Below are positions 514 to 13,745 of a DNA stretch of 64,000 nt, one piece after another. Every line of letters starts with the position of its first letter. Within the stretch, counting starts at the first letter, position 1. The position numbers and the translations under genes are program-made. The notes under the pieces are model-generated. The model was not told where the DNA came from. It made no database searches and saw only the letters and a list, made by a program, of their open reading frames with translations. The stretch is from Bacteroidia bacterium (GTDB taxonomy: Bacteria; Bacteroidota; Bacteroidia; UKL13-3), in the NCBI GenBank assembly GCA_044353855.1, contig JBILBF010000001.1:642233-706232 (forward strand). Direction: 5' to 3'.

Positions 514-1995
514 TTGCTACGTATATTCATGCAAAAATTATTATTTTTATGTACTGTTTTATGGGTGTTGTTATACTCGTGTAAAAAGGAGTTTGATGGC
601 GAGCGCAATAACCAAAATGCACCCGAAACATTCACGTTGGTTGATTCTATTATAAGAGATTCAAACAATTTACTTTCAACCACAGTTAAAGCGAGTTGGT
701 GGGGTGTTTCCAAATCTGGTTTTATTTCAGGATACGAGGTATCAACTGACAACCAACTAACATGGCAATTTACCAAAGCACAAGATGGAACCTTTTTATT
801 AAACCTCCCTTTAGGATTTGCTAAAGGCAATTTACCTATTTTTGTTAGAGCTATTGATAATATTGGACAAACAGATCCAACTCCTGCCGTAATGGTTTTT
901 CCGGTAAAAAATACCGCCCCTACCATTGTGTTTGATTATTTAACAGGTCGTAAAACAATAACTTATCCAGCCTTTAGGTACTATTGGATAACGACTGATT
1001 TAGATGGGCCACAAGATATTGAAAGTATCGAAATAGTATTAAATGACACCAATAAAACACCATTGGTGATGCCCAGCAATACAATAGCAGCAAGTTTTGT
1101 CGCGCTAAATAACAATGGTGTTTTTGACACGTCATGTTGGGTGTACCAAAATACGCGTTCGGTTCCTTTTGCCGAAAAACTACATGGTATTCAATTCAAC
1201 AAGCTCAATTATATTTTTATCCGTTCGGTAGATAGGGTGGGAGCAAAATCTGCTTGGGTACGCGATTCAATTACCATAAAAAAACCTAAATCGGATTTGT
1301 TGTTGGTGAATGATTATAGTACCAAAGGACCTGTTCAAAAATTTTACACTACACAAGTATCTAACTTAGGACCTGCATACAGTAATTTTGACTCCTTATT
1401 GTTGCTTACCGATTTGCCTGCTGATGTTTTTACAATCATCAAAACATTGGACTTTTATAAACGGATTGTTTGGTATAGCGATAATCCTACAAGTACTTTA
1501 GGGTTGGCTCAGTTGGTTACGCAAAACTTTTTTTTACAAGGTGGTCGAATGTTGATGACTTGCGAAATTCCAAATGATTTTCCGTATAACTCCGATTTGC
1601 TCAATTTTACACCTGTGCAAGAATTAGCGCTGCCTCCATCGGGTACAATATTGCGAATGAATAAAGACGAAATAATGTATCCTTATACTCCCGCAAACGG
1701 TTGGCCTACTTTAAAAGCTGAAGCTATTCTATCGAGTGCACGTCCATTTATAACATTTAGTCAGCCTTCTGGTGCTTTTACTTACGATTCAACCTGCAAA
1801 GCAAACATTTTAGCACAAAATACTCAAGGTACAACAGCATGGACGGGTCCTTCAAATGTACTCAGCAAAAGAGTAAAAGTTAATACCGGAAAGCCTGATT
1901 TGTTGTTCTTAACCTTACCCTTACATCGGTTAAATGGGAACAATAATATGGATTCTTTTTTTAGGCAGGCACTTATAACAGAGTTAGCATTTTAA
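514..1995 (+). CDS. hypothetical secreted lipoprotein (493 aa)
   Basis: N-terminal signal peptide ending in lipobox-like LLYSCKK; no recognisable catalytic motifs; stop overlaps purN start (TAATG). Confidence 0.6.
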   Translation: MLRIFMQKLLFLCTVLWVLLYSCKKEFDGERNNQNAPETFTLVDSIIRDSNNLLSTTVKASWWGVSKSGFISGYEVSTDNQLTWQFTKAQDGTFLLNLPLGFAKGNLPIFVRAIDNIGQTDPTPAVMVFPVKNTAPTIVFDYLTGRKTITYPAFRYYWITTDLDGPQDIESIEIVLNDTNKTPLVMPSNTIAASFVALNNNGVFDTSCWVYQNTRSVPFAEKLHGIQFNKLNYIFIRSVDRVGAKSAWVRDSITIKKPKSDLLLVNDYSTKGPVQKFYTTQVSNLGPAYSNFDSLLLLTDLPADVFTIIKTLDFYKRIVWYSDNPTSTLGLAQLVTQNFFLQGGRMLMTCEIPNDFPYNSDLLNFTPVQELALPPSGTILRMNKDEIMYPYTPANGWPTLKAEAILSSARPFITFSQPSGAFTYDSTCKANILAQNTQGTTAWTGPSNVLSKRVKVNTGKPDLLFLTLPLHRLNGNNNMDSFFRQALITELAF

Positions 1996-2564
1996 TGAAA
2001 AAAATACTACTGTTTGCATCGGGAAGTGGGAGCAATGCAGATAATATTTGCCATTATTTTAACAATAATGCCAATGTAAAAGTGGTCGCTTTGTGTTGCA
2101 ATAATCCCCAAGCAGGTGTGATTGCTAAAATGGAAAAATGGCAAGTACCCGTTCTGTTAACTAGCCGAGCACAATTAAATGATGCCAGTTATTTTTTACC
2201 GCTTATTCAACAATACAAACCAGATATTATTGTACTTGCAGGTTTTTTAGTATTGGTACCTCCTTATTTGGTCAAAGAGTTTCCCAATCGTATTATCAAT
2301 ATTCATCCAGCATTACTACCAAAATATGGAGGAAAAGGTATGTATGGACATTTTGTGCACGAAGCCGTTCTTGCTCAAAACGAAACCGAACATGGCATTA
2401 CAATTCATTTGGTAAATGAAAAATTTGATGATGGTGCACACTTGTTTCAACAGTCATTTGAAGTTACACCTCTGGATAACTTGGAATCATTATCGATGAA
2501 AATTTCACTGCTCGAAATGACTCATTACCCAAAAGTGATAGATGAGTATTTGGAGCATAATTAA
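1995..2564 (+). CDS. purN: phosphoribosylglycinamide formyltransferase
   Basis: GAR transformylase signature region IINIHPALLPKYGGKGMYGHFVHEAV and N-terminal ILLFASGSGSN; ~190 aa as typical. Confidence 0.9.
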   Translation: MKKILLFASGSGSNADNICHYFNNNANVKVVALCCNNPQAGVIAKMEKWQVPVLLTSRAQLNDASYFLPLIQQYKPDIIVLAGFLVLVPPYLVKEFPNRIINIHPALLPKYGGKGMYGHFVHEAVLAQNETEHGITIHLVNEKFDDGAHLFQQSFEVTPLDNLESLSMKISLLEMTHYPKVIDEYLEHN

Positions 2565-3058
2565 GTAGACTTAATTTTTTTCTCGATAAGTGAGGTTGAA
2601 AAACCCGGAATAAAATCGATGGTTTGTACGCTGCCACCTTTTGCTGTTACAATATCATAACCCACAATATTCTCAGCAGTATAGTCGCTACCTTTTACCA
2701 AAATATCAGGTTGCACCATATTAATAAGTTCATAGGGTGTTTGTTCCTCAAATAATATTACTGCATCTACAAACTCAAAAGAAGCTAAAATTAGCATACG
2801 CGAAAACTCATCTTGTATCGGGCGATGTGGTCCTTTTAGTTCACTTACCGAGGCATCGGTATTAACGCCAATAATCAACCTGTCGCCTAGGTCGCGAGCT
2901 TTGGCTAAATAATCTACATGCCCACGGTGAATAAGGTCGAATACACCATTGGTAAATACTATTTTTTCACCACCGTCATTCCACTGTACAATTTTTTGCA
3001 TCAACATATCTGGAGTTGTACATATTTTATTTTGAATGAATTCGGTATGAGTTTGCAT
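2561..3058 (-). CDS. cytidylyltransferase-like nucleotidyltransferase (RfaE domain II / D-beta-D-heptose 1-phosphate adenylyltransferase-like)
   Basis: FTNGVFDLIHRGHVDYLAKARDLGDRLIIGVNTD matches the HxGH nucleotidyltransferase motif of the RfaE domain II / glycerol-3-P cytidylyltransferase family; 165 aa. Confidence 0.7.
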   Translation of the reverse strand: MQTHTEFIQNKICTTPDMLMQKIVQWNDGGEKIVFTNGVFDLIHRGHVDYLAKARDLGDRLIIGVNTDASVSELKGPHRPIQDEFSRMLILASFEFVDAVILFEEQTPYELINMVQPDILVKGSDYTAENIVGYDIVTAKGGSVQTIDFIPGFSTSLIEKKIKST

Positions 3059-3139
3059 ATATATCAGATATTATAATGTGCAAAATACGGATAAGTTTTT
3101 AAGATAATGAAGGATACCATTTAGAAGGGAATAATTAAT

Positions 3140-3466
3140 ATCGAATTTCGAAATAAAAGAGGAAATATGAATGAAAAAGAAAGACTAAATAAGAGAATGA
3201 AGATTATTGGATTGAAGAAATAATTAATTTCGAAATTCGAGATTAAATATTCATAACCCCCAAAGAAAATATTTTCTATTGAATGATCAGATTTAGAAAA
3301 GGGATTGTTTTCTAAATTTTAAAAATTAAATATTATTTCGAAATTCGAGATTAAATATTCATAACCCCAAAAGAAAATATTTTCTATTGAATTATCAGAC
3401 TTAGAAAAAGGGATTTTATTCTAAGTTTAAAAATTAAATATTCGAATTCGACATTCGAATTTTGAG
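3140..3466. repeat. AT-rich intergenic tandem repeat: two full 108-bp units (3227-3334, 3335-3442) plus partial flanking copies, rich in TTCGAAATTCGA / CGAATTCG palindromic cores
   Basis: Direct reading: atttcgaaattcgagattaaatattcataacccc(c)aaagaaaatattttctattgaat... repeats with period 108; each unit holds a 8-10 bp hairpin (3291-3317 and 3399-3426). Confidence 0.85.
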
Positions 3467-3469
3467 TAT

Positions 3470-4456
3470 CTATTTTTTCTGTTGTTGAGCTAACACCAAT
3501 AACGAACAAACGCCACCAATAGCTAAGAGTAAAATCATTTGTACACCATGCACAATGGTTGCGTATGCAATGCCATCTGCTTGCGCTACACCAAATAACA
3601 ATAAGGATTGCATCACAGCAAAATGGTAAGTTCCTGCACCTGCTCCTGGAGCCGGAATAATCATACCTATAGAGCCAATTACAAATACGGTTAGGCAATC
3701 CATAAAACTAAGGTGTGCAGTTGCTTGCATGGCAAATAAGCAGAAATACATCATCAATACATAACAAATCCAAATACCAATAGATAATAATAAAAATAAT
3801 AATGGATTGTTGATTTTACGGATACTCAAAAGGCCCTCGGCAAAGCCTTTACATACAACTACTATTTTTTGAAGTAAGGGATGAGCAATAATTTTTTTAC
3901 GCATTATCAATAGCAATGTTCCGAGTAGTAAAAAAAATCCTATTACTACATATTTCAGGGTGTGATCAGCCGAAGAGGGATTACTATTAATTATATTATT
4001 CAGAACAAAATTACGAAGCAATTCAAACTGTATCAAAAAAACCACAAATAATAATAGTAGTAAAATAACAACATCAAATACACGTTCGGTAACAACGGTG
4101 CCCAGTGATTTATTAACAGGTATATCATTTGTTTTAAGCAAAGAAGCGCAGCGAGAAACTTCACCCGCTCTGGGTATAATATAGTTCATCATGTACCCAA
4201 TCATTACTGCATAAAAGCTGTTTTTTGCCGAAACGGTGTACCCCAAAGCTTTGTATAACATATTAGCCCTATATGCTCGTATATAATGGCTAATAACAGA
4301 AACCGACATGCCGGCTGCAATCCACCAATAATTGGTATGCTTAAATTTGAGCATCAAATCAGCCCAATCGGTTCCTTTAAAAACAATATATAAAAACAGA
4401 ACACCAATCAGTCCAATTATTGTGTATTGAATAACCGATTTTAGCTTTGCGCTCAA
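3470..4456 (-). CDS. integral membrane protein, lysylphosphatidylglycerol-synthase-TM-like / flippase-like (UPF0104) family
   Basis: 328 aa with ~8 predicted TM helices; N-terminal region resembles LPG_synthase_TM family proteins; 4-bp overlap with panD suggests an operon. Confidence 0.55.
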
Positions 4457-4803
4457 AAGTTTAGTTTGTTGTTTTGGTCAGGATAAATGGCAATTGGTTG
4501 GTGTTTTTTGGCCACCTCAAATTCCATTGAACAGTAGGAAATGATAATTAAATGATCACCAACAAATCCTTTGCGGGCAGCTGGACCATTGAGACAAATA
4601 ACGCCTGAGTTGCGTTCTCCTTTGATAATGTATGTTTCCAAGCGCTCTCCGTTATTCACGTTTACCACTTGTACTTTTTCATTTTCAATCATATTTGCAG
4701 CTTCCATTAATGCTTCATCAATGGTAATACTGCCCACATAATGAAGCTCCGTTTGGGTAAGCTTTACTCTGTGTATTTTGGATTTTAAAACTTCTATATT
4801 CAT
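4453..4803 (-). CDS. panD: aspartate 1-decarboxylase
   Basis: [90 protein letters not shown] is canonical PanD including the GS self-cleavage site; start set at the internal ATG (4803) rather than the ORF-track start 4863. Confidence 0.9.
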
Positions 4804-4897
4804 AAAAAGCGAGGCAAATGTATGGCAAAATTTTAGAATCACCCGATTTGTAAAGGCAAACATGCTAAAAATCCAGTAAAACTACCATATTGCATCT

Positions 4898-5875
4898 ATG
4901 AAATTAATACTTGCGCTTGAACCTCAATTGGCTAACAAAAAGATAACCTATAACGACACGTTATTATTACTAGGTTCTTGTTTTTCCGATAATATGGGTG
5001 CTTTGTTACATGATGCCAAGTTTAATGTTTTGTTTAATCCTACTGGAATTGTATTTGATCCATTAAGTATAGCTCAACATTTAAGCGATTATGTAACGGG
5101 TAAACAATATCAACCTAATGATCTTTTTCAGCACAATGAGTTGTGGCATAGTTGGCTTCATCATTCGCAGTTCTCTGCTCCTTCGCAAACACAAACTTTT
5201 ACAGCTATTAATGAGTCTATTTGTATTAGCCAACAACACCTGCAATCAGCATCGCATCTTTTTATTACCTTAGGGACAGCTTTTTCGTATTCTTTAAAAA
5301 GTGATGATAAAGCAGTGGCCAATTGTCATAAAGCACCCAAAGAATGGTTTGCAAAAAGATTGTTATCTATCGATGAAATGGTTCAGGTTTTAAAACAAAG
5401 TATTGATCAAGTAAAAAACGTAAATCCACCAATAGAAGTTGTTTTTACTGTAAGTCCTGTTAAGCATTTGCGCGATGGTATTATAGAAAATGTACACAGC
5501 AAAGCAAGGTTATTGGAAGTGGTGCATCAACTTCAAGCGCAACAATATTGCACTTATTTTCCTGCATATGAGCTAGTAACAGAAGTGTTACGTGATTACC
5601 GTTTTTATAAAAGTGATATGGCTCACCCAAATGAACAATCGATACAAATTGTATTCGACCATCTTTGTGAAACGTTTTTAACTGCTGAGTCAGCAAAACT
5701 AGTAGAAAGTGTAATGCATATTATAATGGCTAAAAAGCATAAACCAATACATGTTGATTCAACTACACATCAACAATTTTTACGTTTATTTTTGGATAAA
5801 ACAATGGGTATGCAACAACAATTGCCACAGTTAAATTGGGAACAAGAAATAAATTATTTTAGTAACAGGATATAA
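4898..5875 (+). CDS. GSCFA family protein
   Basis: N-terminal LLLGSCFSDNMG motif and overall length typical of the GSCFA domain family. Confidence 0.7.
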   Translation: MKLILALEPQLANKKITYNDTLLLLGSCFSDNMGALLHDAKFNVLFNPTGIVFDPLSIAQHLSDYVTGKQYQPNDLFQHNELWHSWLHHSQFSAPSQTQTFTAINESICISQQHLQSASHLFITLGTAFSYSLKSDDKAVANCHKAPKEWFAKRLLSIDEMVQVLKQSIDQVKNVNPPIEVVFTVSPVKHLRDGIIENVHSKARLLEVVHQLQAQQYCTYFPAYELVTEVLRDYRFYKSDMAHPNEQSIQIVFDHLCETFLTAESAKLVESVMHIIMAKKHKPIHVDSTTHQQFLRLFLDKTMGMQQQLPQLNWEQEINYFSNRI

Positions 5876-6501
5876 ATACTGTTCAAATATCTCGCTAATT
5901 TCCGTAATTAAAATTGCCTCATATTGTTGCGCTTTTCATCCATCCATTTATTTTTTCCTCCAGGTTTATAAGAGTTGCGCGCTTTTTTAGGTTCTTTATA
6001 TCGAGAATGTTTGCAGCTAGCAAAAAGGATAAAAATGGAAATGAAAAGAAGCGTTTTTATGGTGTTGGTAAACATGTTGGATTAAACTTTTGAAAACTCA
6101 ATTAACTAAAAAAAGCAAAAACCACCTAATTGGGGTAACAATTATTTTATATTGATAGTAAGATTAAGGGTAAAATGGCTTTTAAATTTTTAATGATCAA
6201 AGCTCACACGAATATTTTTTCGAAACTTTCAAGCGAATGTGTCGTCTGGGTGACTAACAACGGCTAGCCAATAAATAAAACAGATATAAATAAGTAAATA
6301 GGTTATAAAAGCGGAGCAAAAAGTATTGTATTGTTAAATATGGAGCAGTCACGGACGTTAAGTGCTAACCAACGTTTGCGGAGAGCGAGGGATTATTCCA
6401 TGATCCCATTATGGGGAGGCTAAAATCAAAGCCAGCTCGTAACCTCGCTTTTTTTAATGACTTCGCTTACATGCGCTCCTGCGTCACACTGATGCTAAGC
6501 C

Positions 6502-7656: not shown

Positions 7657-10600
7657 ATGAGCAATACCACCACCCAAAAAAAGGAACAAAAAGGCCTTCG
7701 TTTCAATCGCTTTTTTACCCAAGATGGAGTAAGTCCATTTGATTTGTATGAATACGATTCGCGTACTTCTGTCATTAAAAATCCCAATGGCGAAAAAGTG
7801 TTCGAACTTACCAATGTAGAAGTTCCCAAATCATGGAGTCAAGTTGCAACAGATGTGTTGGCCCAAAAATATTTTCGTAGAGCAGGTGTCCCATTAGCAG
7901 ATGGAAGTATAGGTGGTGAACATTCGATTAAACAAGTTGCACATCGTATGGCCAATTGTTGGATGTCATGGGGTGAAAAGTATCATTATTTTGATAGCAA
8001 AAAAGATGCTCAAATTTTTTACGATGAAATGGTATACATGATCATCGGTCAGTATGCTGCACCCAATTCACCTCAATGGTTTAATACCGGTTTGCATAGC
8101 TCATATGGCATTACTGGTAAACCACAAGGGCATTATTTTGTGAATCCTAAAACGAATAAATTGGAGCGTTCTACTTCGGCATACGAACGTCCACAACCAC
8201 ATGCTTGTTTTATTTTATCGGTTGATGATGATTTGGTCAATGAAGGCGGTATTATGGATTTGTGGGTTCGCGAGGCACGTATTTTTAAATATGGTTCGGG
8301 TGTAGGCACAAATTATTCAAAGTTGCGCGGAGCTTCCGAAAAACTATCGGGAGGTGGAACATCATCAGGTTTAATGAGTTTCCTAAAAATTGGTGACCGT
8401 GCTGCAGGTGCTATAAAAAGTGGTGGTACAACCAGGCGTGCGGCCAAAATGGTTTGTTTGGATTTAGATCATCCCGAAATTGTAGAATTTATAAATTGGA
8501 AAAAAAACGAAGAGAAAAAAGTAGCTGCATTGATTGCTGCTGGTTATCCAAGCGATTATGAAGGTGAAGCCTATGCAACCGTTGCCGGTCAAAATTCCAA
8601 TAACTCTATTCGTATTCCAAACGAATTTTTTACTGCCTTGGAACAAGACACGGATTGGAATTTAACTGCTCGCAGCAATGGCCAAACAATTAAATCCATC
8701 CCCGCTAAACAATTGTGGGATATGATAGGCGATGCAGCATGGGCTTGTGCCGATCCGGGTGTGCAATATGATACCACCATTAACGAATGGCATACTTGCC
8801 CCGAAGGTGGACGAATCAATGCATCCAACCCTTGTTCGGAATATATGTTTTTGGATAACACAGCTTGTAATTTAGCGTCATTAAACTTAATGCGTTTTTT
8901 TAATGCCGCTACCTGCCAGTATGATGTAAAAGGTATTGAACATGCTTCGCGTTTGTGGACAGTTGTATTGGAAATATCTGTATTAATGGCTCAATTTCCA
9001 TCCAAAGAAGTTGCACAATTATCATACGAATACCGCACCTTAGGGTTGGGTTATGCAAATTTAGGAACGGCATTAATGGTTGCTGGAATACCATACGACT
9101 CCTCAAAAGCATTTGCAATCGGTGGAGCAATTACCGCTATCTTAACTGGAACAGCGTATAAAACTTCGGCAGAAATGGCTAAGTATTTAGGAGCATTTCC
9201 TAAATACAAAGAGAATAAAAAACACATGTTGCGCGTAATGAAAAATCACCGTTATGCTGCCTACAATACTCCCGATTTATATGAAGGTTTAGCTATTCGT
9301 CCCGCAGGTATTGATACTAAAAATTGTCCTGATTATTTGTTAAGTGCAGCATGTACATCATGGGACATGGCCGTGCAAATGGGCGAAAAATATGGCTATC
9401 GCAATGCACAAACAACAGTTATAGCTCCTACAGGTACTATTGGTTTGGTAATGGATTGTGATACAACCGGTATTGAACCAGATTTTGCTTTGGTAAAATT
9501 CAAAAAATTATCGGGAGGGGGTTATTTTAAAATTATTAACCAATCGGTTCCAGCTGCACTAAAAAACTTAGGATATTCCCCATTACAAATAGATGCAATT
9601 ATCAAACATGCAACCGGTCATACTTCGTTAACAGGTGCTCCATTTATCAATCCTGAATCGTTATTATTTAGAGGATTTACTGTAGAAGAAATTGCAAAAT
9701 TAGACAAAGCAGCTGCAGGTGCATTTGAAATTGGTTTTGCCTTTAACCAATGGACAGTAGGTGAAGAATGTTTGCAACGGTTAGGATTCACCGCTGCCGA
9801 ATACAATAGTCCTAAATTTAATTTACTGCGCAAATTGGGTTACACCAAAACAGAAATTGATGCAGCAAATATTTATGTATGTGGAGCAATGACAGTGGAA
9901 GGTGCAGCTGACTTAAAAGACGAACATTTGGCAGTATTTGATTGTGCCAATAAATGTGGAACAACAGGCGAGCGGTATATTGCAGCATCAGGCCATATTC
10001 GTATGATGGCAGCAGCTCAACCGTTTTTAAGTGGTGCTATTTCCAAAACCATTAACCTGCCAAATGAGGCAACTGTGGATGAAATAAAAGAGTGCTACCA
10101 TTTAAGTTGGAGCATGGGCTTAAAAGCAAACGCATTGTACCGGGATGGGTGCAAATTATCGCAACCACTAAGCAATAAAAGTGATGTGGTGGATGATGAA
10201 GACATGCAAGAAGTTGTGGAATCGGTATTGGGCGAATCGGCTCATAAATCATTGGGCGAATTAACTCCTGATCAAGTATTGGAAGCTGCAACGGCTATTT
10301 TAAATAAATCGAGTGATACAGAGTTTAAACGAAAATTAGCGCGCATTGTAGAGCGTAAACAATTACCTGGCAAACGTGCTGGTTTTACCCAAAAAGCAAC
10401 TGTTGGCGGACAAACCATTTTTGTGCGCACAGGTGAATATGAAGATGGAACATTGGGCGAAATATTTGTGGATTTACACAAAGAAGGAGCAACCTTACGT
10501 TCGTTGATGAACTGCTTTTCTATTGCAGTATCATTAGGCTTGCAATACGGAGTTCCATTGGAAGAGTACGTTGATAAATTTACGTTCACCCGTTTTGAAC

Positions 10601-11034
10601 CTGCAGGTATGGTTACTGGGCATGATAATATTAAAAGTGCAACTTCCATAATTGACTATATGTTCCGCATGTTGGGATTTGAATATTTGGGCAGAGAAGA
10701 TTTTATACAAATTGCTCCCAATGAAGTGCAACGTGCAAACCTTGCAATGAATAAACCACATGTAACCATTGCACCCAAAACGATATATCCAGCAGAAGTA
10801 AATCCATTGTTGAATGAAGTTGAAACAACTGCACCCATCGGTTTTATGAAACCACAAACAACAGTGGAAACCATACAAGCCCCGATGGCCGAAATCGTTC
10901 AGCCAGACCAAACACAAGCCTATTTAAAAAGTTTTGGCGATAGCCCATCCTGCCCAAGTTGTGGTAGTTTAACTATTCGCAGTGGCGCATGCTACAAATG
11001 CATGAACTGTGGAACACAAACGGGGTGTTCGTAA
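7657..11034 (+). CDS. nrdJ: adenosylcobalamin-dependent ribonucleoside-diphosphate reductase (class II RNR)
   Basis: 1125 aa; active-site region [21 protein letters not shown]; C-terminal Cys4 zinc ribbon CPSCGS...CYKCMNCG typical of long NrdJ. Confidence 0.9.
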
Positions 11035-11195
11035 AAAGTCGTTGTCTTCGACTCCGCTCAGACAACATCAGAATTTGTAAATCCCTCATTGAATAAAATT
11101 CAGTGGGGGATTTTGGGTTTAAATGAATCTTGTATGATAAAATTCTATGAATAATATTAGGCGTTTCACTAGTAGAAAACTTATTGAGCTTTGGA

Positions 11196-11290
11196 GAATG
11201 TAGTAAAAGTGCATAAACGCAAAAAGCCATTCGGTCCCGATAGCTATCGGGAGGCGTTTTCTTTTTTTGCTCCCTTCATTGATAAAAGAT
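11196..11290. repeat. degenerate remnant of the GIY-YIG/tRNA-Asn junction (first ~8 codons of a GIY-YIG gene + hairpin interrupted by the 18-bp palindrome + tRNA 3'-end-like TTTGCTCCC)
   Basis: gtaaaagtgcataaacgcaaaaagccattcgg at 11203-11234 matches 13452-13483 (start of the intact GIY-YIG gene and its upstream hairpin); palindrome TCCCGATAGCTATCGGGA at 11235-11252; tttgctccc at 11269-11277. Confidence 0.6.
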
Positions 11291-11380
11291 GCAGCCAAAA
11301 TGAGTTAATGATGTATGGAATTATTAGGAAATTAGAAGTTTGATTTTTTATTGACTTAATCAGATTCAAGAAGAAGTTGG

Positions 11381-11644
11381 TTATAGCTTATGTTTACTTT
11401 TCTTTTCCTGCATCTTAATAAACATTTCAAACTCAATTATCAAGTCGCTCAACTTAAATTCAAATGCATCTGCAAGATTTTTAACCCAATAAAGTGTAGG
11501 TGTAATTAAACCACGTTCAAGTCGAGATATATTTTGAAAATTATTGCTCATTAAATCGGCTAAATCAGATTGGGACATGCCTTTTTTAGACCTTTTATAT
11601 CTAACAAAATCACCGAACAAAATGTTGTAGCCTCTTTTTTCCAT
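11381..11644 (-). CDS. XRE-family helix-turn-helix transcriptional regulator (87 aa)
   Basis: KKGMSQSDLADLMSNNFQNISRLERGLITPTLYWVKNLADAF is a classic Cro/C1-type HTH. Confidence 0.7.
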   Translation of the reverse strand: MEKRGYNILFGDFVRYKRSKKGMSQSDLADLMSNNFQNISRLERGLITPTLYWVKNLADAFEFKLSDLIIEFEMFIKMQEKKSKHKL

Positions 11645-11754
11645 TTAAGCCAAACAATTTGTGATAATAGACAACTTGTATACTAACCATATGTGGTTAT
11701 TTTTGTGATGAACATTACATTGATGTTCATCAACCAATTTAAAATAGTATTAAA

Positions 11755-12822
11755 ATGAAAAAAGTAATTTACATAACAATTGCAATTCTAGGATTTGCAA
11801 ATTTTACAATGGCACAAGTGCCAAGCTATGTGCCATCAGATAGTTTAAAAGGATGGTGGGGATTTAATGGTAATGCGAATGACCAAAGCGGTAATGGAAA
11901 TAATGGAACCGTGAATGGTGCTACATTAACAAGTGATAGGTTTGGAAATTCTAATAATTCTTATGGATTCAACGGTTCAAATAATTTTATTTCTTATAAT
12001 AACATTGCAAACCTCCCTATTAAGAACTCTTCGCGAACAATTTCATTATGGTTTCTTTTAACTCCTACTTCAGGATATAACGATGGATATTCACTAATTT
12101 CTTATGGAAGTAAGAATGTTAATGGTGGGTTGAATGATATTTTTATAAAAGCAGATCCTGCTTTGATCGAATTTAATGCACATAGTTGTTATACCGATAA
12201 TAATCCTGGAACAATTAATTCATTTTCAAGCACTTGGCATCATCTAATAGTAAAATACGATAGTGTTAGCATTGATAGTATAGATATTCGTTTTGATAAT
12301 TTAAAAATTGCATCAACTAATCATAACATAAATCAATTAAAAAGACTATTTACCGATAGTTCAGAAATGTTAATTGGTAAATCTGTAATTTCATATGCTA
12401 CTGAATTTTATTTTAATGGTAAAATTGACGACATCGGTATTTGGAATCGTGCTTTAACTGAACAAGAAATCACAAATCTATATAATGGTAATATTTGTTT
12501 TCAGAATATTAGCGTAACTGATACATTAGTTATAAATGTTAACCGTACTGGTTATAATCCTGTAACTTATAGTAACACTTTAAAGGTGTATCCAAACCCT
12601 ACAAAAGACCGCATCACTATTGATAATGGTGACATATCAAAAATGTCAGGATATTCAATAAAAATATTCAATTCATTAGGTCAACAAAAATTCCAATCAG
12701 CCATTAACCAACAACAATTTACAATTGATATTACACAATGGGGTGGCAATGGTTTATACTTCTTAAATTTACTTGATGCATCAGGAAATATTATTGATGT
12801 AAGAAAGATTTTATTGAATTAA
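11755..12822 (+). CDS. secreted LamG/concanavalin-A-like lectin domain protein with T9SS (Por) C-terminal sorting domain
   Basis: Signal peptide; LamG-like core (WHHLIVKYD...GKIDDIGIWNRALTEQEI); C-terminal KVYPNPTKDRITID...GLYFLNLLDASGNIIDVRKILLN is a T9SS CTD. Confidence 0.75.
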   Translation: MKKVIYITIAILGFANFTMAQVPSYVPSDSLKGWWGFNGNANDQSGNGNNGTVNGATLTSDRFGNSNNSYGFNGSNNFISYNNIANLPIKNSSRTISLWFLLTPTSGYNDGYSLISYGSKNVNGGLNDIFIKADPALIEFNAHSCYTDNNPGTINSFSSTWHHLIVKYDSVSIDSIDIRFDNLKIASTNHNINQLKRLFTDSSEMLIGKSVISYATEFYFNGKIDDIGIWNRALTEQEITNLYNGNICFQNISVTDTLVINVNRTGYNPVTYSNTLKVYPNPTKDRITIDNGDISKMSGYSIKIFNSLGQQKFQSAINQQQFTIDITQWGGNGLYFLNLLDASGNIIDVRKILLN

Positions 12823-12875
12823 TAAGCGTCTAATTTTTAATCATTAAATCAAAATAAACTAGCATTTTATTTGAA

Positions 12876-12906
12876 AAAGGAGAGTCAAATGGCTCTCCTT
12901 TTTTTG
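12876..12906 (+). terminator. rho-independent terminator of the LamG/T9SS gene
   Basis: aggagag tcaaatgg ctctcct stem-loop followed by TTTTTTT. Confidence 0.7.
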
Positions 12907-12993
12907 TTAATGTTAAAATATGCAACCACTTCTGGGGCTTGCTGTAAAAAGAAAAAGGTGACAGAAACGTTGCCTTGTTTAGTTGTGCTCCCT

Positions 12994-13011
12994 TCCCGAT
13001 AGAAATCGGGA
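12994..13011. repeat. imperfect copy of the 18-bp palindrome (TCCCGATAGAAATCGGGA)
   Basis: Differs from the perfect palindrome at 2 central positions; lies in the repeat-rich stretch preceded by GTGCTCCC. Confidence 0.6.
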
Positions 13012-13097
13012 CTGGGCTCCCCGATTGTGCAGCTCTATGCTCGTTCCTCACACAGCCGCAGCATCGGGATAAACTTCTCGCCCTCAAAATTTATTCA

Positions 13098-13130
13098 AAA
13101 AAAAAGACCGCAGACTGCGGCCTTTTTTTA
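13098..13130. terminator. bidirectional hairpin terminator (A-run / GACCGCAGACTGCGGCC / T-run); on the minus strand it directly follows the pseudo-tRNA-Asn 3' end
   Basis: aaaaaaaaagaccgcagactgcggccttttttt; position is consistent with being the original terminator of the split ancestral tRNA-Asn. Confidence 0.6.
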
Positions 13131-13135
13131 ATTTG

Positions 13136-13187
13136 CTCCCTGACCTGCCCCGATAGCTATCGGGGGAACCAGGGACCTATTGATTAA
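13136..13187 (-). pseudogene. tRNA-Asn pseudo-fragment: 3' half (anticodon loop to 3' end) with the 18-bp palindrome replacing the T-loop
   Basis: aatttgctccctgacctg + ccccgatagctatcgggg + aaccagggacct + attgattaa aligns with the intact tRNA-Asn at 13502-13548 except for the palindrome insertion and 1 mismatch. Confidence 0.75.
13148..13165. repeat. 18-bp perfect palindrome CCCCGATAGCTATCGGGG (variant of TCCCGATAGCTATCGGGA)
   Basis: Self-complementary; replaces the T-loop of the 3' pseudo-half. Confidence 0.8.
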
Positions 13188-13467
13188 GAGTTATAATTTT
13201 GTGAACCAGTTCAGGATACTGAATCAATGATTCAATAAACCGTTTACTCTTCATTCGTTTAATATGCATTTCAACTTTCAAGGCATGACTTCTATTTTCG
13301 CAAGGGATAATAAGCACTATTTCCCATGGAATTCCTGCTTTTGTCGAATTTGTGTTGAGTTCAGAACTGTTGTGGTACAAAAGACGTGCGTCAACATCCG
13401 TTGTTTCACCAGTATAATATCGATTGCGTTTAGTAGAATATAAAATATAGCAAAAGTGCATAAACAA
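13177..13467 (-). CDS. GIY-YIG nuclease family protein (COG2827/UPF0213-like, 96 aa)
   Basis: FCYILYS...RYYTGETTDVDARLLYHN...IPWEIVLIIPCE matches the GIY / YIG / Arg / Glu core of small GIY-YIG (URI) proteins; last three codons and the stop are encoded by the tRNA-derived fragment; start is immediately 3' of a hairpin+T-run. Confidence 0.8.
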   Translation of the reverse strand: MFMHFCYILYSTKRNRYYTGETTDVDARLLYHNSSELNTNSTKAGIPWEIVLIIPCENRSHALKVEMHIKRMKSKRFIESLIQYPELVHKIITLNQ

Positions 13468-13507
13468 AAAAAGCCATTCGGACAGAATGGCTTTTGCATT
13501 TAATTTG

Positions 13508-13581
13508 CTCCCTGACCTGGACTCGAACCAGGGACCTAGTGATTAACAGTCACTCGCTCTAACCAGCTGAGCTATCAAGGA
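13508..13581 (-). tRNA. tRNA-Asn (anticodon GUU), intact
   Basis: Reverse complement TCCTTGATAGCTCAGCTGGTTAGAGCGAGTGACTGTTAATCACTAGGTCCCTGGTTCGAGTCCAGGTCAGGGAG: 7-bp acceptor stem, D-arm, anticodon stem AGTGA/TCACT with loop CTGTTAA, T-arm CTGGTTCGAGTCCAG; 74 nt. Confidence 0.9.
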
Positions 13582-13612
13582 ATATTTTCCGATTTCAAGT
13601 TGTCAAAGCTTG

Positions 13613-13663
13613 TTGTTACTTGCTCTAACCTCCCGATAGCTATCGGGAGAGCTATCAAGGAAT
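13613..13663 (-). pseudogene. tRNA-Asn pseudo-fragment: 5' half (positions ~1-32) with the 18-bp palindrome replacing the D-loop; retains the native 5' flank
   Basis: gttacttgctctaacc + tcccgatagctatcggga + gagctatcaaggaat(tttcc) aligns with the intact tRNA 5' half at 13548-13590, including the upstream flank ttttcc. Confidence 0.75.
13631..13648. repeat. 18-bp perfect palindrome TCCCGATAGCTATCGGGA
   Basis: Self-complementary; identical to the copy at 11235-11252. Confidence 0.8.
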
Positions 13664-13745
13664 TTTCCTTTAAGGGGATGCAATGATAGGATTTGAAATT
13701 TAAATACGCAATATTTGCCACGAAAAAATTTAAAATAAAATTAGC

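Follow-up and report, generated by a model that had tools for sequence, protein, structure and literature searches.

Why should the DNA that follows nrdJ carry the beginning of a gene for a GIY-YIG nuclease, joined to the end of a tRNA, when both stand complete further along the same strand? The window, by which we mean the whole stretch of DNA analysed here (64,000 nucleotides), holds one intact GIY-YIG gene, placed after a gene for tRNA-Asn. Downstream of nrdJ, which ends at 11034 on the + strand, the first-pass annotation had seen a decayed earlier copy of the junction between these two genes. This reading held: the stretch 11188-11290 is a scar without function, left by an earlier copy of a cassette in which a GIY-YIG gene is linked to tRNA-Asn, and it is matched by orthologous remnants in related genomes, by extra copies at 17 of 80 loci of the family and by an intermediate state in a close relative (L220), its diagnostic block being no generic repeat.

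The evidence begins with a gapped local alignment, where 11197-11276 pairs with 13444-13514 over the 3' end of tRNA-Asn (AGGGAGCAAA), an A-run, a hairpin/terminator, the spacer 'gcgttt' and an ATG followed by five codons. It scores 75, whereas 500 shuffled versions averaged 19.5 and never exceeded 43. At its core lie 30 ungapped nucleotides (11205-11234 = 13452-13481, with 2 mismatches). The match of about 32 nt to the start and upstream hairpin of the intact gene, as first proposed, is real, its paired coordinates being offset by 2 nt. The scar can be read as follows.

11188 to 11214, minus strand: N-terminal remnant of an older GIY-YIG copy, with its ATG at 11214-11212, reading MHFYYILQS and continuing into unrelated sequence.
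11215 to 11234, minus strand: 3' arm of the old terminator hairpin T1 with the pre-ATG spacer (ccgaatggctttttgcgttt), matching 13462-13481 at the intact junction.
11235 to 11252, no strand: palindrome P (TCCCGATAGCTATCGGGA), perfect over 18 nt, in place of the loop and 5' arm of the old hairpin.
11253 to 11275, minus strand: copy of the tRNA-Asn 3' end with an A-run and the first part of a terminator of the T2 type (agggagcaaaaaaagaaaacgcc), directly repeated at 13119-13141.
11276 to 11290, minus strand: possible degenerate remnant of an anticodon arm (cttttatcaatga, compared with ctcttaatcaatagg at 13176-13190), a weak likeness seen by eye, without statistical support.

The palindrome, the sequence resembling a tRNA-Asn 3' end and the eight or so surviving codons had thus been correctly recognised. 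Seven of the nine residues of the remnant agree with the intact start, MHFCYILYS, and the two sequences diverge beyond. Its frame is that of the minus-strand ORF 11119-11298. Another called ORF, 10973-11230 (minus strand), had been considered spurious apart from this N-terminal remnant; it lies in another frame, runs antisense over the 3' end of nrdJ and has no Pfam match, and is therefore spurious as a whole. The hairpin arm at 11215-11234 shares with the intact T1 of the window the lineage-specific 'aatgg'. The 23-nt repeat (family D4), in which TTTTTTTGCTCCC occupies 11262-11274, is 83% identical between its two copies and finishes with the tRNA-Asn 3' end in reverse complement. On the + strand, P and the T-run after it score as terminator-like, so that the scar may incidentally terminate between the convergent nrdJ and HTH genes. 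Taken alone, the scar is ordinary genome debris.

What the debris comes from is visible at the intact copy. From the promoter side towards nrdJ, the features are these.

13615 to 13661, minus strand: 5' half of the resident tRNA-Asn, comprising t1-13, P at 13631-13648 in place of D-loop t14-17, and t18 to about t32; it adjoins a conserved promoter region.
13582 to 13614, minus strand: 33-nt leader of the inserted tRNA, which holds the conserved AAATCGGAA (alignment of relatives).
13507 to 13581, minus strand: functional tRNA-Asn(GTT), carried by the insert (ARAGORN; Rfam tRNA, 67.5 bits).
13469 to 13495, minus strand: terminator hairpin T1 between tRNA and GIY-YIG gene (fold -15.8 kcal/mol, z = -4.45).
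13177 to 13461, minus strand: intact 94-aa GIY-YIG gene of the SLX1/UPF0213 class, as judged from its match to PF01541 and its modelled fold.
13135 to 13191, minus strand: 3' half of the resident tRNA-Asn, from about t31 to t57, P at 13148-13165 in place of T-loop t58-62, and t63-75.
13099 to 13129, minus strand: terminator T2, the native terminator of the resident tRNA-Asn, found directly after the functional tRNA in the unoccupied site of L226.
12985 to 13090, minus strand: an 'odd element' made of GGGCGAGAAGTTTATCC, a hairpin and a copy of the tRNA-Asn 3' end with a degenerate P (12994-13011), collinear with L226 and L224.
11381 to 12822, both strands: cargo between two P copies, with an XRE-type HTH gene (11381-11644, minus; Pfam HTH_3) and a T9SS-sorted lectin-like gene (11755-12822, plus; Pfam Laminin_G_3 and Por_Secre_tail).

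BLAST of the tRNA against the window, together with a repeat search, shows that the two displaced halves make up one complete tRNA-Asn, split in its anticodon stem-loop. The 3' half also encodes the last codons and the stop of the GIY-YIG gene. A relative, L226 (GCA_900175145.1), appears to display what such a site looks like when unoccupied, with the same promoter region, a single unsplit tRNA-Asn, T2 and the odd element, no cassette-type GIY-YIG gene and no P. Over 13012-13191 the window is collinear with L226 from the 3' part of its functional tRNA through T2 to the odd element (74% over 181 nt, E 3e-23), and it follows that leader, tRNA, T1 and GIY-YIG gene together are an insert in the resident gene. 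In this alignment P appears as a clean net insertion of 13 nt in the T loop, and the resident 5' half (13615-13661) corresponds to the 5' end of the single tRNA. The current cassette, namely the 33-nt leader, intact tRNA-Asn, T1 and the 94-aa gene, was thus inserted at about t31/32, in the anticodon stem-loop of the resident tRNA-Asn. Further downstream, L226 keeps a T1-like hairpin with 'gtttt', a relic which suggests that an earlier cassette may have been lost there, loss instead of primary absence being a possibility. The U-run of T1 stops 4 nt ahead of the GIY-YIG ATG, from which we infer that the gene is expressible only by read-through from the tRNA promoter.

Distal to the cassette come T2, an older small relic, the 1.75-kb cargo (HTH and lectin) and finally the scar. 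The HTH/lectin block is absent from L010, L015 and L220. The odd element is without P at the corresponding place in L226 and L224, and its motif is also found after tRNA-Asn in Flagellimonas crocea (L074); the leader motif AAATCGGAA likewise stands upstream of the tRNA in L221. Searched at gathering and at permissive thresholds, Rfam recognised neither the remnant nor the tRNA fragments nor the odd element, giving just weak leader-like matches that arise from hairpin and U-run. Two other interpretations of the fragments were tried and dropped. The tRNA halves might pair in trans around the cassette and form a split RNA resembling a tRNA; the substitutions found in their anticodon stem do not compensate one another. 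The 5' fragment with its spacer might be a decayed 'type B' cassette (fragment, GIY-YIG gene, tRNA); the likeness of the spacer to the ends of type-B ORFs is limited to 'caagcttt'.

How old is the scar? All nine contigs with the identical GIY-YIG protein have DNA that is 100% identical across the region, which leaves nothing to learn from comparing strains. Homologues 86% (L010-L013), 79% (L014) and 69% (L015-L017) identical sit in the same neighbourhood, running from pfkB and tRNA-Asn to nrdJ. Their order (L010-L017) is a 5' fragment with P, tRNA, hairpin, GIY-YIG gene, a 3' fragment with P, a second hairpin copy and a remnant of the GIY-YIG start, this remnant being placed directly after the displaced tRNA-Asn 3' fragment and the second terminator copy. 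The L010 remnant and window 11203-11234 share 31 of 32 nt, which makes the scar orthologous and old; over the codons that survive, the DNA is the same in both (gcgtttATGCACTTTTAC). The orthologous hairpin of L010 has no P.

Further relatives were found by anchoring on the conserved pfkB gene. The closest of them, L220, with a pfkB 96% identical, has a 1.8-kb AraC island between the tRNA and its GIY-YIG copy. The copy so displaced has a premature TAA and is followed by the same remnant; it shows an intermediate state on the way to the decay of a displaced copy. After the 3' fragment of L220 there is, moreover, a single hybrid P (CCCC...GGGA) in place of the two copies that lie 1.9 kb apart in the window. 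Its left flank is the C of the T-loop copy, its right flank the A of the scar copy, and it is joined directly to 'ccgaatgg...gtttATG'. Compared with the two copies of the window, this hybrid identifies 11253-13147 as an indel delimited exactly by P, of which the scar copy at 11235-11252 is the left breakpoint, and P as a recombination breakpoint. At the same site, Bacteroidetes bacterium UKL13-3 (L218; complete genome CP012155.1) has 8.1 tandem units of 410 nt, each with terminator, GIY-YIG gene and 3' fragment with P, together with 11.3 tandem units of 80 nt made of the 5' fragment with P and a spacer, each array being 98% uniform. Among these relatives one sees amplification in tandem, displacement and decay alike. 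A signature of the co-conversion type, in which the target is restored and displaced fragments of it flank the insert, is seen in the window, L010, L015 and L218. As a side remark, some of the 'pseudogenes' at this site (L221, L223) may be homopolymer sequencing errors.

The palindrome deserves attention in its own right. The first-pass annotation had noticed it, missing that P is a phylum-wide motif and a recombination breakpoint, and also that the intact tRNA is part of an insert that splits a resident gene. The core of P (CCGATAGCTATCGG) is present in the 64-kb window as three perfect copies and one degenerate copy, all within 2.5 kb (shuffles predict 0.07); each copy sits inside a piece of tRNA-Asn, and there is no solo copy in the 64 kb outside this locus. 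The string 'ggttc-P-caggtcagggagc' is 100% conserved between the window, L010 and L015, where the invariant sequence, P included, amounts to 42 nt in the 5' fragment and 36 nt in the 3' one. The spacers have diverged, and dS in the adjoining gene is at least 1; P and its flanks must thus be under constraint. The unit with tRNA and GIY-YIG gene has P on both sides in the window and in L010-L017.

Beyond this locus, a scan with one genome per species found P in at least 120 stretches, all from Bacteroidota and from several classes. Among the matches listed, the bases flanking P are T/A in 79% and complementary in 96%, with no systematic complementarity further out. That complementarity stops after the first base on either side makes of P an 18-nt unit and not the tip of a longer inverted repeat; the latter idea was rejected, extended hairpins accounting for 8% of the copies among the matches listed, against 2% in controls. 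P is mostly intergenic (10% of the copies among the matches listed are inside ORFs, such ORFs covering 77% of the bases) and enriched near tRNAs (11 of 135 within 600 nt, again among the matches listed). About 130 of the 135 copies among these matches are far from any GIY-YIG gene. Solo copies have no consistent target-site duplication: among the matches listed, 8 of 134 have one of at least 5 nt, about 1.3 being expected, mostly in microsatellite contexts. Lacking this hallmark, P is unlikely to be a classical cut-and-paste MITE. It could be a site for the nuclease, a means of breaking up direct repeats by which the gene would be lost, or a hairpin at the RNA level. In the literature that we searched, its sequence was not found in any paper.

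What kind of enzyme is encoded next to it? The 94-aa protein matches PF01541 with 44.3 bits (cut-off 22.6; E 2.3e-11). Profile searches of the PDB lead to 1zg2 (8e-8), 1ywl (7e-6) and SLX1 (1e-4), with no match to I-TevI or UvrC at E < 0.01. An AlphaFold2 model (pLDDT 89.6) has the order beta-beta-alpha-beta-alpha-alpha-alpha; in Foldseek its top matches are UPF0213 and SLX1, with a probability of 1.00 to 1zg2 and to SLX1 structures, of 0.47 to UvrC and of 0.28 to I-TevI. Sequence profiles and modelled fold thus agree in assigning the protein to the SLX1/UPF0213 branch of the GIY-YIG superfamily, UvrC and I-TevI being clearly more distant. Across ten sequences, some as little as 33% identical, the columns that never vary are Y5, Y15/Y16, G18, R26, H30, N31 and E64, and the catalytic Tyr, Tyr, Arg, His and Glu are conserved. 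The protein amounts to the catalytic domain followed by two short C-terminal helices, with no recognisable DNA-binding or auxiliary domain. NCBIfam and PHROGs hold no family for it. A phage origin is not supported, given that there is no PHROG match and that tblastn against phages yielded just two marginal matches, both to Listeria phages (E 9e-4).

A wider set of 80 diverse loci, 38-51% identical, was obtained by scanning metagenome contigs with an alignment of GIY-YIG proteins, and it shows that the cassette architecture is family-wide. A tRNA on the same strand lies within 320 nt of the gene at 59 of the 80 loci (upstream at 50, downstream at 9), for a chance expectation of 1-2%, an estimate based on how densely tRNAs lie in 823 kb of other loci from Bacteroidota. 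These 59 tRNAs are of the isotypes Phe (23), Asn (18), Leu (6), Arg (5), Met (4), Gly, Val and Thr (1 each). Most of the 80 loci have displaced fragments of the same tRNA on the flanks of the ORF, with a loop replaced by a palindrome. Where the palindrome is P, the loop in question is the T loop or, in some cassettes of Asn, the variable loop; in those of Met it is the anticodon loop, and in fragments that precede the ORF, with the tRNA downstream, the D loop. P lies within 150 nt of the GIY-YIG gene at 38 of 80 loci. Cassettes of tRNA-Phe and tRNA-Leu have a different palindrome, CCCGAAGCTTCGGG or CTCCGAAGCTTCGGAG, and which variant is present follows the clade of the protein (CCCGATAGCTATCGGG versus CCCGAAGCTTCGGG). 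A neighbour-joining tree groups the proteins by isotype, the two Phe-linked loci with a palindrome of the GATAGCTATC type falling outside the main Phe clade. The region that precedes the ATG is directly repeated after the stop codon at 42 of 60 loci (7% in cross-locus controls). After the intact gene, 17 of these 80 unrelated loci have extra full tandem copies or N-terminal remnants, from residues 1-21 to 1-52. The family comprises some 2200 clusters at 50% identity (E <= 1e-3), almost all of 80-130 aa. Many of its members have been called with N-terminal extensions of 25-40 aa, apparently running through the tRNA.

From this body of comparisons we draw a reading that we hold to be probable: the events that shaped the locus and left the scar, homing, amplification and exchanges from one P to another, would have been driven by the nuclease. 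Expressed by read-through from the tRNA promoter, the enzyme would cut or nick structured DNA at a tRNA gene or at P. Recombination provoked by the cut would copy the cassette, together with its replacement tRNA, into unoccupied tRNA genes, that is, homing with co-conversion; it would also amplify units in tandem, as in the segmental amplification associated with SegB, and remove or add DNA from one P to the next. Once separated from the tRNA, older units would cease to be expressed and decay into scars. For the locus discussed here, the likely history would start with tRNA, T1 and an old GIY-YIG gene. T2 with the odd element, and the HTH/lectin cargo, would then have been inserted at the 3' end of the tRNA, an episode marked by the 23-nt repeats at 11253-11275 and 13119-13141. 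Subsequently, the old copy would have decayed to its ATG and 8 codons and P entered the hairpin, before the split from L220. Finally, a new cassette would have inserted into the anticodon region.

The account that competes best with this reading, unlikely as we find it, makes of the GIY-YIG gene an ordinary host gene, tied to the tRNA through RNA or DNA repair or tRNA processing, so that repeats, fragments and remnant would result from passive slippage or unequal crossing-over, with no mobility driven by the nuclease. It has real merits. The ORF is under purifying selection (dN/dS 0.03-0.07, with dS of at least 1) and its synteny is stable; a constant chromosomal position over such a divergence, with such strong selection, also fits a host gene. 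It counts against homing, too, that the enzyme is a bare catalytic domain, lacking a module for DNA binding of the kind that gives homing endonucleases their specificity for long sites. The survey of the superfamily by Dunin-Horkawicz et al. places the selfish enzymes in another branch, describing the bacterial SLX1-like group as minimal, vertically inherited and non-selfish, in keeping with the housekeeping role generally granted to the SLX1/UPF0213 class, and the fusion with TrmH found in the GIY-YIG literature hints at a link to tRNA (PMC1564403). Unequal exchange alone, furthermore, can make tandem arrays. However, a host gene has no need to split a resident tRNA and to bring its own copy of it, nor to be linked to 8 tRNA isotypes, each time with displaced fragments. 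Its state, too, differs between close relatives: intact in the window, L010 and L015, amplified eightfold in UKL13-3, displaced and interrupted by a stop in L220, while L226 has no cassette-type gene.

Somewhat less plausible still is the accretion of an island, whereby an element with a tyrosine integrase would have come repeatedly to tRNA-Asn and duplicated the 3' part of the tRNA as attL/attR, the GIY-YIG gene being a passenger and the remnant an old piece close to attR. Several features look the part: direct repeats of the tRNA 3' end (11253-11275 and 13119-13141) bracket the HTH/lectin block, the stretch 13135-13191 duplicates the 3' part of the tRNA, the last 17 nt of the odd element copy the tRNA 3' end in the manner of an att site, and the region from tRNA-Asn to nrdJ is variable among relatives. 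Accretion probably explains the cargo blocks. It fares poorly with the cassette itself. The Pfam families of the genes called within 10 kb on either side include neither integrase nor transposase; what would be the 'island', separating the intact tRNA from its displaced 3' half, is a single ORF of 285 nt; the 5' half of the tRNA is displaced as well, which is not a product of integrase crossover; the same ORF-only architecture recurs at 8 tRNA isotypes, with a GIY-YIG phylogeny that tracks the isotype; and the arrays are tandem and uniform.

There is next to nothing, finally, to recommend the reading by which the 32-nt block and the palindrome are a chance likeness or a common intergenic repeat unrelated to GIY-YIG, for while the palindrome alone is widespread in the intergenic DNA of Bacteroidota, mostly not beside GIY-YIG genes, the non-palindromic block (11205-11234) has just two copies in the 64-kb window, both at GIY-YIG junctions (shuffles predict 0.00), and it belongs to an 80-nt alignment that includes tRNA end and ORF start and has orthologous remnants in relatives.

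If, as we propose, the nuclease drives these events, the biology of homing endonucleases would come to include cellular tRNA genes and a branch of GIY-YIG enzymes regarded as non-selfish. Pseudo-tRNA fragments and mis-called ORFs of one class in the annotations of Bacteroidota genomes would find their explanation, and a dispersed, conserved palindrome would gain a candidate protein partner, hence a testable pair of enzyme and site. The recurrent architecture is that of a minimal SLX1-like GIY-YIG gene set on tRNA genes of at least 8 isotypes across Bacteroidota, which splits the resident tRNA, supplies a replacement and amplifies in tandem, each cassette carrying one of two near-invariant palindromes. 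A bolder view, which we put forward tentatively and would not yet bet on, is that the mini GIY-YIG enzyme and the 18-nt palindrome form a partnership across Bacteroidota, and the first selfish lineage of SLX1/UPF0213. The enzyme would be a structure-specific nuclease, made by read-through from the tRNA promoter, that recognises the extruded palindrome or hairpins of tRNA genes; it would insert cassettes with a replacement tRNA into anticodon regions, write or maintain the palindrome where disabled tRNA halves had their loops and inside other hairpins between genes, and drive both tandem amplification and indels from palindrome to palindrome. The literature searched gave no description of the cassette or of P, and this family of tRNA-linked nuclease cassettes with a conserved 18-base palindrome, present throughout Bacteroidota, is apparently undescribed.

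Several known systems offer points of comparison. Phage T4 SegB and related free-standing GIY-YIG homing endonucleases reside in clusters of tRNA genes, and the likeness is that of a GIY-YIG nuclease gene embedded among tRNA genes (PMC2330249; PMC13096335). The amplification associated with SegB has its match here in the 8-unit array of UKL13-3 and in the tandem copies found among the 17 of 80 loci mentioned above. Unlike SegB, the cassette is chromosomal, in Bacteroidota, with no clear phage relatives; its 94-aa enzyme, reduced to the domain, belongs to the SLX1/UPF0213 branch and not to the I-TevI/Seg branch with its DNA-binding tail; and the resident tRNA is split, its loops replaced by a fixed palindrome. 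In mitochondria, free-standing homing-endonuclease ORFs leave 3'-terminal duplications of their target gene, atp6 or cob for example (PMC6279837). As in the present case, the insert restores the target and the displaced 3' part stays downstream as a pseudo-fragment, beside degenerated endonuclease ORFs (PMC6279837). The difference is that our target is a tRNA and not a protein gene, in a bacterial host, and that a cassette of the window type carries a whole replacement tRNA and leaves both resident halves in place.

Integrative elements that target tRNA genes, with duplication of the tRNA 3' part as attL/attR, are said to have been described by Williams in 2002. Here too, the 3' part of the tRNA has piled up in several copies downstream of the gene, with variable cargo in between; by contrast, there is no integrase, the cargo of the core unit is the nuclease ORF only, and 5' fragments are duplicated as well. 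REP sequences, which have a head motif, form REPtrons with the RAYT transposase, an enzyme of the HUH/Y1 type. They share with our cassettes a short conserved intergenic palindrome, a single small gene of nuclease type flanked by copies of it, and a variant that tracks the clade. The enzyme here is however GIY-YIG and not HUH/Y1, P, a perfect palindrome of 18 nt, lacks the head motif of REP, the whole is linked to tRNA genes, and solo copies of P are sparse, none being present in the 64-kb window outside the locus. Fungal mitochondria have palindromes of their own: the PstI palindromes of Neurospora flank tRNA genes and yeast has its GC clusters, all suspected of being mobile or recombinogenic, and a yeast study reportedly describes a mobile family of GC clusters. 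We know of no protein partner established for them. They resemble P in being CCC...GGG palindromes of about 18 nt in AT-rich DNA, next to tRNA genes and endonuclease ORFs, and differ from it in that sequence and host are unrelated. As for the protein, the SLX1/UPF0213 enzymes (YhbQ-like; PDB 1zg2, 1ywl, 4xlg, 7cq3) are its best matches in sequence and fold, with the same catalytic residues and the same minimal domain, whereas they are treated as repair or housekeeping proteins, with no link to tRNA genes or selfish behaviour described (PMC1564403). The interest of the locus, then, lies not in the scar but in the wider system that left it, which is related both to tRNA-associated GIY-YIG homing elements and to pairs of palindrome and nuclease.

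In the complete genome of Bacteroidetes bacterium UKL13-3 (L218, CP012155.1), positions 1640-5930 hold eight tandem GIY-YIG units of 410 nt each and eleven tandem pseudo-tRNA 5'-fragment units of 80 nt each, the two arrays surrounding one single tRNA-Asn and carrying 19 copies of the palindrome within 4.3 kb. Of the near-identical relatives L010, L012 and L013, L013 alone carries the 81-nt 5'-fragment unit in duplicate (1060-1225), and a 46-nt hairpin (gtcccgctctgcctaagcagagcggga...) is inserted 3' of the GIY-YIG remnant in L012 and L013 (about 607-652), L010 being without it. This duplication and this insertion indicate recent turnover on a small scale.

A second, unrelated UPF0213-type GIY-YIG gene of 98 aa lies approximately 160 nt past the old T1-like hairpin in two genomes (L224 2142-2438; L225 1972-2268). 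It is missing from their close relative L226, whose sequence parts from theirs immediately 3' of that hairpin. GIY-YIG genes therefore seem to have accumulated more than once at this same boundary.

Gene callers translate through the palindrome, giving ...PIAIGT... (the C-terminus of protein P0009; window ORF 11119-11298 on the minus strand), and miscalled upstream starts appear to fall inside the tRNA, which the open frame of L055 shows directly; many family members are called at 120-134 aa. As a consequence of such calls, these small nucleases carry artificial N- or C-terminal extensions in public protein sets. The flanking nrdJ is split into three to four called pieces in JGI contigs L015-L017 (about 9233-12285), and in L221 and L223 the GIY-YIG reading frame is shifted within homopolymer runs; in both cases errors of long-read assembly are a more probable cause than genuine pseudogenes. 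The DNA from pfkB to the 5' tRNA fragment (window 13662-13745) is kept in all relatives (...ggcaaatattgcgtatttaaatttcaaa.cctatcattgcatccc). Its match to the S15-Flavobacteria leader is below threshold (28.9 bits, cut-off 46.5), and it most likely holds the divergent promoters from which pfkB and the tRNA are transcribed.

In the tRNA-Phe and tRNA-Leu cassettes (L144-L215; e.g. L146 653-668, L170 2795-2810), the T loop of the displaced tRNA fragments has given way to a palindrome of a second family (CCCGAAGCTTCGGG, CTCCGAAGCTTCGGAG, TGCCGATGCTTCGGCA). Across 823 kb from other Bacteroidota loci no dispersed copies of it were found, and in this it differs from P, the 18-nt palindrome of the window's tRNA-Asn cassette. 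Many solo copies of P sit inside short tandem hepta- or octamer repeats with the same motif on both sides, e.g. tacgaat or gtgagtg, which suggests that P is connected with intergenic DNA of a microsatellite-like kind.

Solo palindromes within tandem repeats (locus, position)
L027, 353
L036, 1179
L058, 4342
L095, 2883
L115, 5354
L119, 2140
L128, several

A conserved module is also found 3' of tRNA-Asn terminators (window 12960-13090; L226 2700-2790; L224; L074 4200-4290). Its parts are GG(G/A)CGAGAAGTTTATCC, a hairpin that spans about 45 nt, and 17 nt that repeat the 3' end of tRNA-Asn. The window, L224-L226 and the distant Flagellimonas crocea (L074) all have it. No match to the module was found in Rfam. 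The outer arms of its hairpin, CCCGAT...ATCGGG, are those of P. The module may represent the relic of an old att site, P in a 'long form', or a small RNA.
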